From assembly GCF_044324875.1 (NCBI RefSeq), contig NZ_CP172185.1: 64,000 bases of DNA. The stretch is one strand, 5' to 3'. Source of the DNA: Escherichia coli (lineage in GTDB: Bacteria > Pseudomonadota > Gammaproteobacteria > Enterobacterales > Enterobacteriaceae). This document shows positions 43,111 through 53,855 of this stretch, in pieces. Below the pieces are notes generated by a model that did not search any database, had not been told where the DNA came from, and saw only the letters and a program-made list of their open reading frames with translations. The position numbers and the translations under genes were made by a program. How positions within the stretch are numbered: position 1 is the first letter of the stretch; the number at the start of each line of letters is the position of its first letter.

Positions 43111-44355
43111 ATGGCAACACTAACCACCACCCAAACGTCACCGTCGCTGCTTGGCGGCGTGGTGATTATCGGCGGCACCATTATTGGCGCAGGGATGTTT
43201 TCTCTGCCTGTGGTCATGTCCGGGGCGTGGTTCTTCTGGTCAATGGCGGCGCTGATCTTTACCTGGTTCTGTATGCTGCATTCCGGCTTGATGATTCTGG
43301 AAGCTAACCTGAATTACCGAATCGGTTCGAGTTTTGACACCATCACCAAAGATTTGCTGGGCAAAGGTTGGAACGTAGTCAACGGCATTTCCATTGCCTT
43401 TGTGCTCTATATCCTGACTTACGCCTATATTTCTGCCAGCGGTTCGATTCTGCATCACACCTTCGCGGAGATGTCGCTGAACGTCCCTGCACGGGCAGCT
43501 GGATTTGGTTTTGCACTACTGGTGGCGTTTGTGGTGTGGTTGAGCACCAAAGCGGTCAGCCGGATGACGGCGATTGTGCTGGGGGCGAAAGTCATTACGT
43601 TTTTCCTCACCTTCGGTAGCCTGCTGGGACATGTGCAGCCTGCGACATTGTTCAACGTCGCCGAAAGCAATGCGTCTTATGCACCGTATCTGCTGATGAC
43701 GCTGCCATTCTGTCTGGCATCGTTTGGTTATCACGGTAACGTGCCGAGCCTGATGAAGTATTACGGCAAAGATCCGAAAACCATCGTGAAATGCCTGGTG
43801 TACGGTACGCTGATGGCGCTGGCGCTGTATACCATCTGGTTGCTGGCGACGATGGGCAACATCCCTCGTCCGGAGTTTATCGGCATCGCCGAGAAGGGCG
43901 GTAATATTGATGTGCTGGTACAGGCGTTAAGCGGCGTGCTGAACAGCCGTAGCCTGGATCTTCTGCTGGTTGTGTTCTCAAACTTTGCGGTAGCGAGTTC
44001 GTTCCTTGGCGTAACGCTGGGTTTGTTTGACTATCTGGCAGATCTGTTTGGTTTCGATGACTCGGCTATGGGCCGCTTGAAAACAGCATTGTTGACCTTT
44101 GCACCGCCTGTTGTGGGTGGTTTGCTGTTCCCGAACGGATTCCTGTACGCCATTGGTTATGCTGGCTTAGCGGCTACCATCTGGGCGGCAATCGTTCCGG
44201 CGCTGCTGGCCCGCGCATCGCGTAAACGCTTTGGTAGCCCGAAATTCCGCGTCTGGGGCGGCAAGCCGATGATTGCGCTGATTCTGGTGTTTGGCGTCGG
44301 TAACGCACTGGTGCATATTTTATCGAGCTTTAATTTGCTGCCGGTGTATCAGTAA
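43111..44355 (+). CDS. mtr: Tryptophan-specific permease
   Basis: 414-aa polytopic [55 protein letters not shown]... Confidence 0.95.
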
Positions 44356-44363
44356 TTGAACGA

Positions 44364-44388
44364 GCCGGATGAGCAGTTTTCATCCGGC
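44364..44388. terminator. Perfect 9-bp-stem hairpin between convergent mtr and the 176-aa ORF; candidate terminator
   Basis: gccggatga-gcagttt-tcatccggc; no strong T-tract on either side, so function is uncertain. Confidence 0.45.
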
Positions 44389-44415
44389 AATAATTCACAA
44401 GTACACGAGATGGTA

Positions 44416-44946
44416 TCAAATAAACCCCTGTTTATTATAAAGTTCTTCAGCGAGAGCTTCCCCGTGCTCATCGAAAAAAGCATCGGCGATAGTTAAATTT
44501 TCTGCCTTAGGATTTGCCGTTATTTTGCTACCATTGGCATCAAATTCGAGCGCGATAGCGGTCTCCGAACCCCACCAGTAATAATAAATTAGCGCAAAAT
44601 TATTTTCCCCTGGCGTAATAAACTTCTCGATTCCCCGCACACAGGCCATGAGTGGCATGAAGATTTCATAGCTCTCTGAGAGAAATATGTGATCCATCGT
44701 GACTATCTGTGTTTCTTTATTAAAGTTGATATGTTCGGCATAAATATTCTTTTCACTTTCACCAGAATTACAAGCTGCAAGATTGTTAAGCATTTTTGCA
44801 GGATCGCCGTACAACCGCTGCTTCTCGATAAACCATGGCAACCAGTCGTCATGGTCTTTGATATTTGTTGCTGGTGAATGGAAAAACTTCTCGAGGTTAC
44901 TCTCGGTAATATGTGCATGAAGAAAAAAGGAAGCCGGTTCACTCAT
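44416..44946 (-). CDS. Hypothetical 176-aa protein, no recognisable family; no N-terminal hydrophobic segment, so probably cytoplasmic; in the insertion relative to K-12
   Basis: Only long ORF across this AT-rich stretch (MSEPASFFLHAHITESNLEKFF...ALEFDANGSKITANPKAEN...KQGFI); weak GAGA-type SD upstream; coding status not independently supported. Confidence 0.55.
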   Translation of the reverse strand: MSEPASFFLHAHITESNLEKFFHSPATNIKDHDDWLPWFIEKQRLYGDPAKMLNNLAACNSGESEKNIYAEHINFNKETQIVTMDHIFLSESYEIFMPLMACVRGIEKFITPGENNFALIYYYWWGSETAIALEFDANGSKITANPKAENLTIADAFFDEHGEALAEELYNKQGFI

Positions 44947-45103
44947 AATGATTTTCTCTGGTAATAAGTCGATTTGTTCATTTCTCTGTTTGGCGATGAT
45001 AAAACGATGACTATTTTATAAAAGTACAGAACTGGACCTTTCATCTATTTCATATCATAAGAAAATATATACTTGAACTGGCTCAGAATAAGCGGAATAC
45101 GAA

Positions 45104-45823
45104 ATGGGGCGTAAAGGACTACTTGCTATTGTATTGTTGAGCCTGTTTATCGCCATGATTTTTCAATTTTTCTGGCCTGCCCCACACGATGAACACGTTT
45201 TCCTGCCAGTTGAAAAACCTGTCGCACCGTCTTTAAAAATCATTCATCCTGGTGACCAGTTATTTATCCGCATTCTGAAAGCGGAAGATAAGCTGGAACT
45301 GTGGGCAAGCACCAACAACAAGCCTTACGAACTCTATAAAACCTGGACTATATGCGCGTGGTCTGGTGGCTTAGGGCCAAAACACAAACAGGGGGATGGT
45401 AAAAGCCCGGAAGGTTTTTATGCCACCAACAAAGAGTTGCTTAACCCAAACAGCCGCTATCATCTGGCATTTAATATTGGTTACCCGAATGCTTACGATC
45501 GGGCAAACGGCTACACCGGTGATTTCATTATGGTTCACGGAAACTGCGTTTCGGCGGGCTGCTATGCCATGACCGATGCTGGTATTGAAGAGATTTATCA
45601 ACTGGTGGCGCAGGCGCTGAATAGCGGGCAGAAGAGCGTGCCGGTGCATATCTTCCCGTTTGCGATGGACGAAGAAAATATGCGCCAGGCGCAGGTATGG
45701 CCGGAATATAATTTCTGGCGTATGTTGAAGCCCGGCTATGATTACTTTGAAAAAAATCGCCGATTGCCAACCATCACCGTTGAAAACCGGCGTTATAAAA
45801 TCAGCCCAACAACTCTTCCTTAA
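45104..45823 (+). CDS. YkuD-fold L,D-transpeptidase-like protein, YafK/DpaA paralogue, with N-terminal signal peptide or membrane anchor
   Basis: 239-aa ORF with hydrophobic N-terminus ([19 protein letters not shown]); conserved blocks [55 protein letters not shown] and LKPGYDYFE match the E. coli YafK sequence as I recall it, including the catalytic-Cys HG..S.GC motif. Confidence 0.8.
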
Positions 45824-46808
45824 CATCCATCGCCAGTTCAAACGAATGCAGGCGCGCCTGGTGATCGAAAATCTGCCCGTTAACCATAATCTCATCGGCG
45901 TCGGTTTCGCGCAGGATCGACTGCAAGCCGTGACGCACTTTCGCTTTATCACCCACCAGCGACATACTCAGCGCCTGCTGCACGCCATACTGCTCGGACG
46001 GTGACCAGAACTGATCCATATTTTGAATCGGCGGCGGCAGTTGCCCGGTTTCGCCACGGCGCAGCTTCACAAAGGCTTGCTGCATTGAGGTAAACAGAAA
46101 TTCAGCGTCGCGGTTGCTGTCGGCGGCGATAATATTGATGCACACCATCGCATACGGTTTTTCCAGCCGTGCCGACGGTTTGAAGTTGCTGCGATAAAGA
46201 TGCAGCGCCTGGAACAACATATCCGGCGCGAAGTGTGAGGCAAACGCAAACGGCAGACCAAGCTGCGCCGCCAATTGCGCGCTGTAAAGGCTGGAGCCTA
46301 ACAACCACACGGGGATTTTCTCGCCATAGCCTGGTACCGGGCGCACATGCGGATTGGGATCGCGGGCGTCAAACCAGTCCACCAGCTCCGCGACATCGCG
46401 GGGAAAATTATCAATATCGCCGCTCATATGACGACGTAGAGCCATCATGGTTCGCTGGTCACTACCCGGAGCACGACCCAGCCCCAAATCGATTCGCCCC
46501 GGATAGAGCGTATTAAGCGTGCCGAACTGTTCGGCGATCACCAATGGTGAGTGATTAGGCAACATCACGCCGCCAGACCCCAGATGCAGCGTAGTGGTAT
46601 TCGCCGCCAGATAGCCAATCAAAACTGATGTTGCAGCACTGGCAATGCCGGTCATATTGTGGTGTTCCGCCAGCCAGTAGCGATGATAGCCGCGCTTTTC
46701 AGCCAGACGGGCGAGGTCGAGAGAGTGGGAGAACGCTTCTCGCGCTGAAGAACCTTCGGGAATGGGGGCCAGATCGAGTAGCGAAAACGCAATGGTTTTA
46801 TCAGTCAT
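45801..46808 (-). CDS. yhbW: Luciferase-like (LLM-class) flavin monooxygenase
   Basis: 335-aa [54 protein letters not shown]... Confidence 0.92.
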
Positions 46809-46811
46809 AAC

Positions 46812-46882
46812 AGCTCACTTTGTTACCGATTAATCTTTAATACTGCATTAAAGAGTAGTTAAAGTTGTTAACAAAGTGAGCT
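46812..46882. promoter_or_regulatory. 14-bp perfect inverted repeat with 43-bp spacer, adjacent to the yhbW start
   Basis: agctcactttgtta (46812-46825) and taacaaagtgagct (46869-46882); the first half overlaps the presumed yhbW SD (gtgagc), 4 nt from the ATG. Confidence 0.5.
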
Positions 46883-46888
46883 ATTTAC

Positions 46889-47767
46889 TTACGCTTGCAG
46901 CTCCAGCCCGGCCAGCCGACGCCAGTAGCCGTTACAATCGCTGTTTGCCGTCAACGGCAGTGGCGCAGCGCCATTTTCATTGGCGCGGAAGGCGTCGAGT
47001 ATCGCGAAAGTGTCAGTACCCTGCGGTGACAGGCGGACCACATCAACCAGCCCCTGCATGGATGCCAGCTCGTTACCGAGGTTGTAAACGTAGCCGCTCA
47101 TGGTCTGAATGCCGTTGAGTACAAACACTTGTTGGTTTTCCTGCGACAGCACGTTGCGCCCGTTCGGATACTTAATGCAGCAGGTTTCGCACTCATCTTT
47201 CGGGCGGTCTTCCGAACGCGCGGTAAAGCAGCGGGCGGAGTAGGCCAGCGGCAGATGACCGTAGCTCAGGACTTCCACTTCAAACTGGTTGCGAATGCCC
47301 AGCTCATCGCACTGATTAAGCAGATTCACCAGCCAGTCGCGGGAAAGCTCCACCGGCATACACCAGCGCATCATGCCCTGTTTGAGCAATATTTTCAGTG
47401 TCACCGCGTTGTAGCAGTTCAGCGCGTGCCCGGCGACGAACGGCAGTTTGCGTTCAGCGCACATATTCACCACGCCGAGATCGCTGGCTTCAATCAGAAA
47501 CTCACCGTTCTCAACATAGCGTTTCAGTTCGCCCAGTTCAGAGGATGCCTGCACCAGCGCCAGCGTGGAGAGCACAATCTGCTTACCACTTCCGGCGAGT
47601 GATTTTGCCATCTCCAGCCAGTCGCCAACTTTGGTTGCCCGGCGCTTGCTGCATACCGCTTCACCAAGATAAATCACGTCGGCGCTGCTGGCGGCGGCCT
47701 GCTGATAAAATTCTTCCAGCGTCTCTTTTGGCCAGTACCACAGCACTGGCCCTAAGGAATATTTCAT
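46889..47767 (-). CDS. ubiV: U32-family protein of O2-independent ubiquinone biosynthesis, UbiV
   Basis: ORF 46889..47785; start at internal Met MKYSLGPVLWYWPKE... (292 aa). Confidence 0.88.
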   Translation of the reverse strand: MKYSLGPVLWYWPKETLEEFYQQAAASSADVIYLGEAVCSKRRATKVGDWLEMAKSLAGSGKQIVLSTLALVQASSELGELKRYVENGEFLIEASDLGVVNMCAERKLPFVAGHALNCYNAVTLKILLKQGMMRWCMPVELSRDWLVNLLNQCDELGIRNQFEVEVLSYGHLPLAYSARCFTARSEDRPKDECETCCIKYPNGRNVLSQENQQVFVLNGIQTMSGYVYNLGNELASMQGLVDVVRLSPQGTDTFAILDAFRANENGAAPLPLTANSDCNGYWRRLAGLELQA

Positions 47768-47775
47768 TGCTTTTC

Positions 47776-48771
47776 TCACTGCCATTTACGGTGATACGCG
47801 CCAAGGGTGGTCTGCGTGCCTTCGGACATCGACCCGAGCGTCTCCATCCACGCGCTTTGCGGTACGAAGTTTTGCGGATCGGCCTTACAACGGTCGATAG
47901 CCTGACGCCAGACTTTCGCCACCTGGCTGACATACGCCGGGCTACGCTGGCGGCCTTCAATTTTCACCGAAGCAATATTCGCCGCCATTAACTCCGGCAG
48001 CAGTTCCAGGGTATTGAGACTGGTGGGTTCTTCCAGCGCGTGATAGCGCTCGCCGTCCACCAGATAACGCCCTTTACACAGCGTCGGATAACCTGCGTTT
48101 TCGCCATCCTGATAACGGTCGATCAGCACTTCGTTCAGGCGGGATTCCAGCCCCTGCGGCGTTTGTTGCCAGCGCACGAAACGGGCCGGAGAACACGCAC
48201 CCACAGTGTTGGGCGACTCACCCGTCAGATACGACGACAGATAGCAACGCCCTTCCGACATAATGCACAGGCTGCCGAAAGCAAACACTTCCAGCGGGAC
48301 AGGTGTGACCCGAGCCAGTTGTTTCACCTGATGAATCGACAACACGCGCGGCAGCACCACGCGTGCAACGTCAAAATGGCGATGATAAAAGTTAATCGCC
48401 TCTTCATTGGTCGCCGAAGCCTGCACCGATACGTGACGTTCAATATGCGGGTAACGTTCGGCGGCGTACTCCAGCATGGCGAGGTCGGCGAGGATCAGCG
48501 CGTCGGCACCCAGCTGCGCCGCCATATCCACGGCGCGCTGCCAACGGGCGTAACCGTCCGGATGCGCAAAAGTGTTAATCGCGATGTGAAGTTTGCGGCG
48601 ATGTTGATGGACAAAACTCACCGCTTCCTGCAATTTTTTCTCGGTAAAGTTAAGGCCGGCGAAGTGACGGGCATTAGTATCATCTTTTAGCCCGATATAA
48701 ACAGCATCTGCGCCGTTTTCGATGGTCGCCTTAAGCGCCGGGAGATTTCCGGCAGGGCAGAGCAGCTCCAT
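47776..48771 (-). CDS. ubiU: U32-family protein of O2-independent ubiquinone biosynthesis, UbiU
   Basis: ORF 47776..48798; start at internal Met MELLCPAGNLPALKATIENGADAVYIG... (331 aa). Confidence 0.88.
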   Translation of the reverse strand: MELLCPAGNLPALKATIENGADAVYIGLKDDTNARHFAGLNFTEKKLQEAVSFVHQHRRKLHIAINTFAHPDGYARWQRAVDMAAQLGADALILADLAMLEYAAERYPHIERHVSVQASATNEEAINFYHRHFDVARVVLPRVLSIHQVKQLARVTPVPLEVFAFGSLCIMSEGRCYLSSYLTGESPNTVGACSPARFVRWQQTPQGLESRLNEVLIDRYQDGENAGYPTLCKGRYLVDGERYHALEEPTSLNTLELLPELMAANIASVKIEGRQRSPAYVSQVAKVWRQAIDRCKADPQNFVPQSAWMETLGSMSEGTQTTLGAYHRKWQ

Positions 48772-49504: not shown

Positions 49505-50001
49505 TTCGAGTAGAAATTCCCATTGATGCGCCGGGTATTGATGCCCTGCTGCGTCGTTCATTCGAAAGTGATGCGGAAGCGAAGCTGGTTCACGATCTGC
49601 GTGAAGATGGCTTTCTGACGTTGGGGCTGGTGGCGACAGATGACGAAGGTCAGGTCATTGGCTATGTGGCATTTAGTCCGGTTGATGTGCAGGGCGAAGA
49701 CCTGCAATGGGTCGGCATGGCACCGTTGGCGGTTGATGAAAAATACCGTGGACAGGGGCTGGCACGCCAACTGGTCTATGAAGGACTCGATTCGCTTAAT
49801 GAGTTCGGCTATGCCGCAGTGGTGACGCTGGGCGATCCGGCGCTGTACAGTCGTTTCGGCTTTGAGCTGGCGGCGCATCACGATCTGCGTTGCCGCTGGC
49901 CGGGCACTGAAAGCGCCTTCCAGGTACATCGTTTAGCGGATGACGCGCTGAACGGCGTAACCGGTCTGGTTGAGTATCACGAGCATTTCAATCGCTTTTA
50001 A
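49498..50001 (+). CDS. yhbS: GNAT-family N-acetyltransferase
   Basis: 167-aa ORF; ATG overlaps the ubiT stop (ATGCTAA). Confidence 0.9.

Positions 50002-50763: not shown

Positions 50764-50784
<21 letters not shown>
50341..50784 (+). CDS. yhbP: UPF0306-family protein (pyridoxamine-phosphate-oxidase-like fold)
   Basis: 147-aa [37 protein letters not shown]... Confidence 0.9.
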
Positions 50785-52117: not shown

Positions 52118-53158
52118 ATGACTGGTCAGTCTTCATCTCAGGCGGCAACGCCCATTCAGTGGTGGAAACCCGCGCTTTTCTTTCTCGTTGTCATTGCTGG
52201 TCTCTGGTATGTGAAATGGCAACCTTACTACGGCAAAGCGTTTACTGCTGCCGAAACCCACAGTATCGGTAAATCTATCCTTGCGCAGGCGGATGCTAAT
52301 CCGTGGCAGGCGGCGTTGGATTACGCGATGATCTATTTCCTCGCGGTATGGAAAGCGGCGGTGCTGGGGGTGATCCTCGGTTCGTTGATTCAGGTGCTGA
52401 TCCCGCGTGACTGGTTGCTGCGTACGCTTGGGCAATCGCGCTTTCGCGGCACGCTGCTGGGAACGCTGTTTTCGCTGCCGGGTATGATGTGTACCTGCTG
52501 TGCGGCTCCGGTCGCGGCGGGAATGCGTCGCCAACAGGTATCGATGGGCGGGGCGCTGGCATTCTGGATGGGGAATCCGTTGTTAAACCCGGCGACGCTG
52601 GTGTTTATGGGGTTTGTCCTCGGCTGGGGCTTTGCCGCGATTCGTCTGGTGGCGGGGTTGGTGATGGTATTGCTGATTGCGACGCTGGTGCAAAAATGGG
52701 TGCGTGAAACACCGCAAACGCAGGCACCGGTCGAAATTGACATACCGGAAGCGCAGGGCGGGTTTTTTAGCCGCTGGGGCAGGGCACTATGGACGCTTTT
52801 CTGGAGTACGATCCCGGTTTACATCCTTGCGGTACTGGTGTTGGGTGCCGCTCGCGTCTGGTTATTCCCCCATGCCGATGGTGCTGTCGATAACAGCCTG
52901 ATGTGGGTGATTGCGATGGCGGTAGCGGGATGCTTGTTTGTCATTCCCACGGCGGCAGAAATTCCAATTGTACAAACGATGATGCTGGCAGGCATGGGAA
53001 CCGCTCCGGCGCTGGCATTGTTGATGACGCTCCCGGCGGTGAGTTTGCCGTCACTGATTATGCTGCGCAAAGCGTTCCCGGCGAAAGCCTTATGGCTGAC
53101 AGGGGCGATGGTGGCAGTGTCTGGTGTGATTGTCGGCGGGTTGGCGCTGTTGGCCTAA
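52118..53158 (+). CDS. yraQ: Putative permease, inner membrane
   Basis: 346-aa polytopic ORF. Confidence 0.9.
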   Translation: MTGQSSSQAATPIQWWKPALFFLVVIAGLWYVKWQPYYGKAFTAAETHSIGKSILAQADANPWQAALDYAMIYFLAVWKAAVLGVILGSLIQVLIPRDWLLRTLGQSRFRGTLLGTLFSLPGMMCTCCAAPVAAGMRRQQVSMGGALAFWMGNPLLNPATLVFMGFVLGWGFAAIRLVAGLVMVLLIATLVQKWVRETPQTQAPVEIDIPEAQGGFFSRWGRALWTLFWSTIPVYILAVLVLGAARVWLFPHADGAVDNSLMWVIAMAVAGCLFVIPTAAEIPIVQTMMLAGMGTAPALALLMTLPAVSLPSLIMLRKAFPAKALWLTGAMVAVSGVIVGGLALLA

Positions 53159-53193
53159 GATGTTGGATGCTCCTGAATACAGCACTGGACGGT

Positions 53194-53217
53194 CCCCTCT
53201 CCCCTTTGGGGAGAGGG
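53194..53217. terminator. Strong GC hairpin between convergent yraQ and dolP
   Basis: cccctctcccc-ttt-ggggagaggg, a 10-bp perfect stem with 3-nt loop. Confidence 0.6.
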
Positions 53218-53279
53218 TTAGGGTGAGGGGAACAGGTCGGCTAAGGTGTGAATATTTACTTCAACGACCGATCAATGGC

Positions 53280-53855
53280 TTATTTAATAAACGTAAACGC
53301 CGTGGTTACCCGCTTCACGCCGCTTACCCGGCTGGCAATATCTGCCGCCGCTTTCGCTTCACGTTCAGTCACTAGTCCCATCAGGAACACTTCACCGTTT
53401 TCGGTGGTCACTTTCACGTTGGACGATTTCACCAGGTCGCTGGTTAAGAGCTGCGAACGCACTTTGGTGGTGATCCACGTATCGTTAGACGCTTCGCCCA
53501 GACCAATCGGCTGGCCCTGACGAATCTCGTTATACACTTCGTTGGCACCGTCTACGCCCATAGCAATCTGTTTGGCGCGAGCCGAAAGTTCAGCGTTTGG
53601 TGACTGCCCAACCAGCAGCACTTTGCCCTGATACGCCGTGACATTAATACGGGTTTCTTTCTTAATCTGTTCGTCTTTCGACAATGCGCTGTTTACGCGC
53701 ACTTCCAGGGTACCATCGTCCACCTGGGTGCCGACACTGCGTGGGTCAGTTGCGGCTTTGGTACCTACAGCAGCGGTACCCACTACGGCAGCGGCAACAC
53801 AACCTTGCAACAGCAGCGCGGAAAGAAGGACTGCGATTGGCGATAATGCCTTCAT
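53280..53855 (-). CDS. dolP: Dual-BON-domain outer-membrane lipoprotein DolP
   Basis: 191-aa ORF with lipobox LLLQGC. Confidence 0.94.
   Translation of the reverse strand: MKALSPIAVLLSALLLQGCVAAAVVGTAAVGTKAATDPRSVGTQVDDGTLEVRVNSALSKDEQIKKETRINVTAYQGKVLLVGQSPNAELSARAKQIAMGVDGANEVYNEIRQGQPIGLGEASNDTWITTKVRSQLLTSDLVKSSNVKVTTENGEVFLMGLVTEREAKAAADIASRVSGVKRVTTAFTFIK

Follow-up and report, generated by a model that had tools for sequence, protein, structure and literature searches.

Several described systems come close to the arrangement considered here. Overlapping 3′ regions are a known regulatory layout, under the names of excludons and overlapping 3′-UTRs (PMC7154746, PMC12288877). Polymerase collisions at convergent gene pairs have been documented in E. 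coli (10.1101/2022.10.23.513370), and that work summarises the bidirectional terminators that Ju et al. (2019) described between convergent E. coli pairs. Intrinsic (Rho-independent) terminators are recognised by a stem with a G+C-rich base and an adjacent U-rich tract. With respect to the proteins encoded at the locus, DpaA/YafK/LdtF is the E. coli Lpp-peptidoglycan amidase, characterised by the YkuD fold and a conserved HGxCVSxGC catalytic region (PMC8263019, PMC10653827). Enzymes of the DpaA family detach Lpp from peptidoglycan (PMC8263019), and yhbW, when present in multicopy, suppresses the essentiality of sigma-E (PMC2215328). No literature on the mtr-yhbW locus or its overlap specifically was found in our paper searches.

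The locus lies in a stretch of 64,000 nucleotides of E. coli DNA, referred to as the window, in which yhbW and a transpeptidase-like gene converge and share their 3′ ends:

45104-45823, plus strand: gene with an L,D-transpeptidase fold, a DpaA/YafK/LdtF paralog, 239 aa, EC042_RS18360 in E. coli 042 (ORF, Pfam, NCBIfam, PDB 8ikr, RefSeq)
45801-46808, minus strand: yhbW, luciferase-like monooxygenase, 335 aa (ORF, NF007802, named yhbW in every E. coli record opened)
45801-45823, both strands: tail-to-tail overlap of the two coding sequences (ORF list and RefSeq annotation of carriers)
45806-45823, plus strand: five-codon read-through extension (PTTLP) and stop (protein alignment, DNA colinearity)

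The plus-strand ORF of 239 aa terminates with TAA at 45821-45823 and the minus-strand ORF of 335 aa with TGA, which reads TCA on the plus strand at 45801-45803; the two ORFs have 23 nt in common. This convergent overlap, already pointed out in an earlier note on this DNA, was recovered in independent genomes. PGAP/RefSeq annotates an identical 23-nt overlap in E. coli 042 (EC042_RS18360 for the transpeptidase-like gene and EC042_RS18355), in Ecol_316 and in two diverged carriers, that is, in all four E. coli carrier records opened out of 183 carriers, and the same overlap is present in Salmonella and E. fergusonii carriers. The accessory segment that contains the transpeptidase-like gene is 100% identical in the window and in E. 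coli 042. Profile matches and RefSeq annotation support both frames to the C-terminus, and none of the alternative stops or frames that, according to the note, might have removed the overlap does so for either gene. An annotation or frame error was ruled out, since homology backs both frames and the overlap recurs in several genomes, and its recurrence in the four E. coli records, Salmonella and E. fergusonii likewise leaves no place for a sequencing error.

YhbW matched NCBIfam NF007802 with 733 bits over residues 1-334 of 335, and also matched Pfam Bac_luciferase. For the transpeptidase-like protein, the score against Pfam YkuD (PF03734) was 29.7 bits, above the gathering score of 23.4, and the conserved catalytic Cys/His region of the YkuD superfamily was present. 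The protein also matched the solved DpaA-type structure PDB 8ikr (E 1.6e-64, residues 39-235), with its HGxCVSxGCYAMT motif aligned to HGDCVSIGCYAMT of 8ikr. The NCBIfam LdtF_DpaA_YafK model gave 253.7 bits over residues 14-235 of 239, and because this value falls below the equivalog cut-off of 365 bits, the protein is a paralog of DpaA/YafK/LdtF and not the equivalog. The two have the YkuD fold and the HGxCVSxGC catalytic region in common; in contrast to DpaA/YafK/LdtF, the gene studied here is a second, accessory copy at another locus.

The overlap is not unusual and corresponds to a common, already annotated tail-to-tail layout. Two further pairs of convergent core genes overlap in the window, yhbS/yhbQ by 14 nt (49988-50001) and yhbP/yhbO by 21 nt (50764-50784). 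All three pairs consist of supported coding sequences that face each other and have their last 14-23 nt, with both stop codons, in common; the yhbW pair differs from the other two in that one partner belongs to a variable accessory segment, whose boundary is located within the last codon of the other gene. The overlap is no greater than expected by chance, since an ORF that enters the antisense strand of its neighbour ends at the first in-frame stop, which is here reached five codons on. Inside yhbP, a minus-strand hairpin with a T tract was also noticed at 50529-50490, ~235 nt downstream of the yhbO stop.

The origin of the last five codons was examined in other carriers, in which the 3′ ends of the transpeptidase-like gene and yhbW are arranged as follows:

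Salmonella enterica isolates (L004/L005): 23-nt overlap
E. fergusonii (L095/L096): 23-nt overlap
Superficieibacter (L006-L009, L101): 8-nt overlap
E. albertii (L093/L094): 131-nt spacer
K. oxytoca-type (L089-L092): 42-nt spacer with a G+C-rich hairpin

Protein alignment showed that the relatives of 234 and 237 aa end with ..RYK[FI]N followed by the stop, and that the window protein runs five residues beyond. At the DNA level, the Superficieibacter sequence ATT AAC TAA GTA GTT CTT CCT TCA and the window sequence ATC AGC CCA ACA ACT CTT CCT TAA are colinear, and the extension region is also colinear with E. albertii DNA. The ancestral stop position corresponds to 45806-45808, which is a sense codon in the form carried by E. 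coli, Salmonella and E. fergusonii. The missing stop at 45806-45808 lengthens an 8-nt overlap to 23 nt: deprived of it, the transpeptidase-like gene continues for five more codons through antisense yhbW to the next TAA. The same observations could be taken as the mark of a damaged gene, that is, a decaying pseudogene that lost its stop at a recombination junction and became fused to antisense yhbW, as the five codons are not common to the 234- and 237-aa relatives and the boundary of the segment is found two bases before the first of them. We consider this highly improbable, given that the 239-aa ORF is intact in four E. coli (93.8-100% segment identity), in Salmonella and in many 239-aa cluster members, that its catalytic motif can be aligned with that of the solved DpaA structure, and that the extension adds just five residues to a C-terminus that varies in the family.

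The earlier note had also maintained that the overlap leaves no room for independent terminators. As to yhbW, this statement did not hold, because a hairpin followed by seven U residues begins 8 nt past the yhbW stop, inside the codons of the neighbour:

45792-45758, minus strand: predicted yhbW terminator hairpin, CGCCGGUUUUCAACGGUGAUGGUUGGCAAUCGGCG, within the transpeptidase-like codons (folding)
45757-45750, minus strand: U tract AUUUUUUU (U7) directly after the hairpin, predicted 3′ end of the yhbW transcript (sequence)

Folded alone, the hairpin has a free energy of -16.5 kcal/mol; in a 59-nt context the MFE was -17.7 (z -3.3), and 0/200 shuffles were as stable. The element has the traits of an intrinsic terminator, a stem with a G+C-rich base and an immediate tract of seven U, a few nucleotides past the stop. 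It is unlike the usual ones in that it lies wholly in an opposing coding sequence, where the same bases encode protein, and it is predicted from the sequence. A consensus terminator scan returned only a weak 5-bp hairpin at 45693-45681, no better than shuffles, and missed 45792-45758 because the stem contains a bulge. An RNAfold-based scan of the whole window on both strands (128 kb), which required a hairpin of -12 kcal/mol or lower followed by at least 6 T in 8, identified 22 sites at that threshold, and the chance that such a site lies within 60 nt after a given stop is roughly 0.01.

The hairpin and U7 were kept in all overlapping carriers. Hairpin MFE values were -18.2 kcal/mol in the Salmonella carrier, -15.1 kcal/mol in E. 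fergusonii, -17.0 kcal/mol in E. albertii, -19.5 kcal/mol in Superficieibacter L006 and -23.0 kcal/mol in S. electus L009, with z across carriers from -3.3 to -5.1. In Superficieibacter, a change in a Pro codon (CCA>CCG) pairs within the stem with a change in a Val codon (GTT>GTC). A covariation test on only 10 distinct sequences found 86.9% of cells paired, with double changes in two pairs, and it was not significant, with 99/500 shuffles reaching the percentage paired and 50/500 the covariation score; structural conservation of the hairpin is suggestive only. Among 23 more distant homologs, in whose loci tblastn gave no match to yhbW, the combination of hairpin and T tract at the same position was absent in 23/23.

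These data bear on whether the element functions as a terminator or owes its shape to the protein. Conserved amino acids favour portions of the stem, through the Arg-Arg codons CGC CGA / CGG CG, as well as the U tract, whose codons GAA AAA AAT specify Glu-Lys-Asn, and the terminator shape could be a by-product of coding. If hairpin and U tract were nothing but a consequence of the protein sequence (EKN, NRR...ENRR), yhbW transcription would end elsewhere, for instance through Rho inside the transpeptidase-like gene. The lack of significant covariation agrees with this alternative, as do the retention of the hairpin in E. albertii, where yhbW is >130 nt away, and the T tract that EKN yields in some distant homologs too, such as L030 and L033. 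However, the stability of the hairpin is well beyond that of shuffles, and there is an asymmetry that favours the yhbW strand: the plus-strand version, with tail UUAUAAAAUC, reaches only -11.4 kcal/mol, against -17.7, because an A.C mismatch stands where the minus strand has a G.U pair. The paired Pro and Val changes in Superficieibacter and the absence of the combination from the 23 more distant homologs also argue against it. So do the K. oxytoca-type genes: they are accompanied by a separate hairpin in the spacer and encode the corresponding residues as GAG AAA TAC (E-K-Y), without a T tract. On balance, we regard a mere by-product as rather unlikely. The hairpin at 45792-45758 with its U7 most likely ends yhbW transcription, which would give the yhbW mRNA a 3′-UTR of ~50 nt.

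The hairpin resembles the bidirectional terminators of convergent E. coli pairs in being located at the meeting point of the two genes, with overlapping transcript ends expected. In contrast to them, it is at most unidirectional, being weaker and without a U tract on the plus strand. The hairpin lies 29 nt upstream of the stop of the transpeptidase-like gene, and a bidirectional terminator was ruled out, since termination on the plus strand at the hairpin would remove that stop.

Beyond the transpeptidase-like gene, the RNAfold-based window scan detected no plus-strand intrinsic terminator until 50396. The 100 nt that follow its stop are unstructured (z +1.07), and over 45800-46020 C outnumbers G by a factor of 1.5-1.9 in the majority of 80-nt windows. 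Untranslated antisense RNA in E. coli is terminated by Rho. From base composition and this property of Rho, the transpeptidase-like transcript is expected to undergo Rho-dependent termination or to read through; past 45823 it would consist of unstructured, C-rich antisense RNA, the synthesis of which Rho, or else polymerases that arrive from yhbW and collide, would probably bring to an end. Since this mRNA has to include 45823 and that of yhbW is predicted to extend to ~45750, the coding sequences and the predicted terminator together imply that the two mRNAs would be complementary over at least ~74 nt (45750-45823).

Complementarity of this kind invites comparison with excludons and overlapping 3′-UTRs (PMC7154746, PMC12288877), which likewise involve opposite-strand neighbours with mRNAs complementary over tens of nucleotides. 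The antisense interference envisaged in the note would correspond to an excludon-like unit, which would imply that neither gene has a terminator, that the transcripts run deep into each other, and that expression becomes mutually exclusive because polymerases collide and RNase III cleaves the duplex. Overlapping coding sequences guarantee complementary mRNAs, the transpeptidase-like gene is not followed by an intrinsic terminator, the layout is a known regulatory one, and collisions at convergent E. coli pairs are documented (10.1101/2022.10.23.513370). Yet a canonical-looking yhbW terminator 8 nt past the stop means that run-through is expected in one direction only, and similar overlaps are found between unrelated core genes nearby. 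In addition, both genes persist in E. albertii and K. oxytoca with 131 and 42 nt between them, which argues against the overlap being essential. The yhbW pair also differs from excludons in that its predicted overlap is short (~74 nt or more). For these reasons we find a mutually exclusive unit unlikely, and prefer to see in the locus a conventional overlap with a predicted terminator for yhbW.

The transpeptidase-like gene occupies, together with a second gene, a segment that varies among E. coli genomes:

44356-45804, no strand assigned: variable two-gene accessory segment, delimited by the loss of homology immediately past the mtr stop and at 45804/45805
44416-44946, minus strand: 176-aa hypothetical gene, divergent partner of the transpeptidase-like gene (ORF)
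44364-44388, no strand assigned: hairpin between the convergent mtr and 176-aa genes, GCCGGAUGA...UCAUCCGGC (folding, within the segment)

Among the 5426 complete E. coli genomes searched, 183 (3.4%) carried the segment in the mtr-yhbW gap, all 183 matches being chromosomal and one per genome; DNA matching a query that contained yhbW was present in 5424 of the 5426. In module-free E. coli, a 116-bp spacer with a REP-like palindrome takes the place of the segment. Over 44300-45300, GC content drops to 36-43%. The 176-aa protein had no Pfam or NCBIfam match, and 157 bp of low GC content separate its gene from the divergent transpeptidase-like gene. Both genes co-occur in E. coli, Salmonella, E. 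albertii, S. electus (68% aa) and K. oxytoca; the 176-aa gene is missing from E. fergusonii and from some Superficieibacter loci (L006, L008). The hairpin at 44364-44388 showed -17.0 kcal/mol on the plus strand and -19.6 on the minus strand (z about -3.2 and -3.5), and it is conserved in E. albertii and Salmonella carriers. No clear U tract accompanies it on either strand, and we regard it as a candidate terminator element for mtr and the 176-aa gene. A search of genome contigs yielded mostly distant YafK-like genes, S. electus providing the sole syntenic ortholog among them, and the other carriers were located through protein clusters and contig look-ups. In E. fergusonii (L095/L096, 1-2680), the region upstream of the transpeptidase-like ORF, which is 244 aa long there, carries Mal_decarbox_Al, OAD_beta and CitG genes (malonate decarboxylase-type) and not mtr with the 176-aa gene.

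The earlier note had referred to the transpeptidase-like gene as inserted. This description was not borne out, as the same gene is convergent to yhbW at the same locus in several other genera and signatures of insertion are missing. The ends of the segment showed no direct or inverted repeats of note, and its only two ORFs match no Pfam or NCBIfam mobility family; neither repeats, target duplication, integrase or transposase, nor a tRNA target marked it as a mobile element or genomic island. A transposon-like insertion was ruled out, the segment having neither flanking repeats nor mobility genes. More generally, recent arrival of foreign DNA through a mobile element targeted at the yhbW 3′ end would fit the low GC of part of the segment and its restriction to 3.4% of complete E. 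coli genomes; it is nonetheless very unlikely in view of the missing end repeats and mobility genes, of the same locus and orientation in five other taxa, and of flank alleles that fit homologous recombination. Comparative data point instead to the transpeptidase-like gene as an old, patchily distributed resident that has been exchanged by homologous recombination.

The limits of the segment were defined by comparison of the window with module-free E. coli L002 (NZ_OX030728.1) over 43111-47785. Between the stop of yhbW and the start of ubiV, only three positions (45801, 45802 and 45804) distinguish L002 from the window, which places the right presence/absence boundary at 45804/45805, inside the last Gly codon of yhbW. 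The suggestion of the note that a junction might sit at or inside the yhbW 3′ end is thus supported. The left boundary is directly after the mtr stop. The last yhbW codon is GGC in the window and GGA in module-free strains, and the stop, supplied by the variable segment, is TGA in the window and TAG in module-free strains. The protein remains the same with or without the segment, 335 aa ending in ..EELLG, and is identical in L002 and L003. In mtr, 38 sites differ between L002 and the window; near-identity from yhbW to ubiV next to a diverged mtr is what one sees in a recombinant whose crossover took place at the extreme end of yhbW.

We then compared the window with the Salmonella carrier. The segment is 93-95.5% identical between them, compared with 84-86% for the flanking genes, and there are zero mismatches over 45788-45833, after which divergence returns to the species level. 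As the segment is more alike than its flanks and 45788-45833 contains no mismatch, the overlap travels with the segment. These identities indicate that the segment passed between Escherichia and Salmonella once the species had separated; the simplest route would be homologous recombination within the terminal parts of mtr and yhbW. In the comparison with BL21, mtr and yhbW near the segment (43500-44300, 45800-47000) are 93-96.5% identical and ~98-100% identical farther off, a raised divergence that is linked to the segment. Elsewhere in the window, 53001-53400 is 86% identical to BL21 with 58 gapped columns, between neighbours at 96-99%, and represents a local indel or variable spot.

E. albertii provides an indication of the order in which the layouts arose. 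In L093 (3706-3836), the stop of the transpeptidase-like gene is followed by a relic of ~20 nt that resembles the 3′ end of yhbW (AACAACTCTTTCTT), and between this relic and the real yhbW end lies a REP spacer homologous to the mtr-yhbW spacer of module-free E. coli; the yhbW tail sequence is present twice in this locus. The relic and the REP spacer suggest that the overlapping layout is older than the spaced one.

All in all, we consider it probable that the locus is an ordinary tail-to-tail overlap within an old accessory segment, with the yhbW terminator embedded in the transpeptidase-like gene. A DpaA/YafK-like, periplasmic transpeptidase-like protein is encoded in an old two-gene segment that fills the gap between mtr and yhbW in a minority of Enterobacteriaceae. 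The version found in E. coli, Salmonella and E. fergusonii has no spacer, with the yhbW stop and the last wobble base of that gene placed inside transpeptidase-like codons. It is doubtful, in contrast, that the last ~45 nt of the transpeptidase-like gene are dual-coded under selection, for the protein and for the yhbW terminator, and that the overlap of the mRNAs couples two envelope-related functions. An envelope link between yhbW and the transpeptidase-like gene is speculative.

The consequences for biology at large are small, since the overlap, flagged as one without terminators, is a routine and already annotated layout. The yhbW pair adds a further case to the known tail-to-tail gene overlaps and, to the extent that the predicted hairpin acts as such, to the known intrinsic terminators that lie inside a neighbouring gene. 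It illustrates that a terminator can hide in the coding sequence of a convergent neighbour, so that the lack of intergenic space does not amount to the lack of a terminator, and that the presence/absence boundary of an accessory segment can fall within the last codon of a core gene and leave the protein unchanged. With spacers of 131 and 42 nt and overlaps of 8 and 23 nt, the carriers form a natural series for the sharing of 3′ ends by convergent genes.
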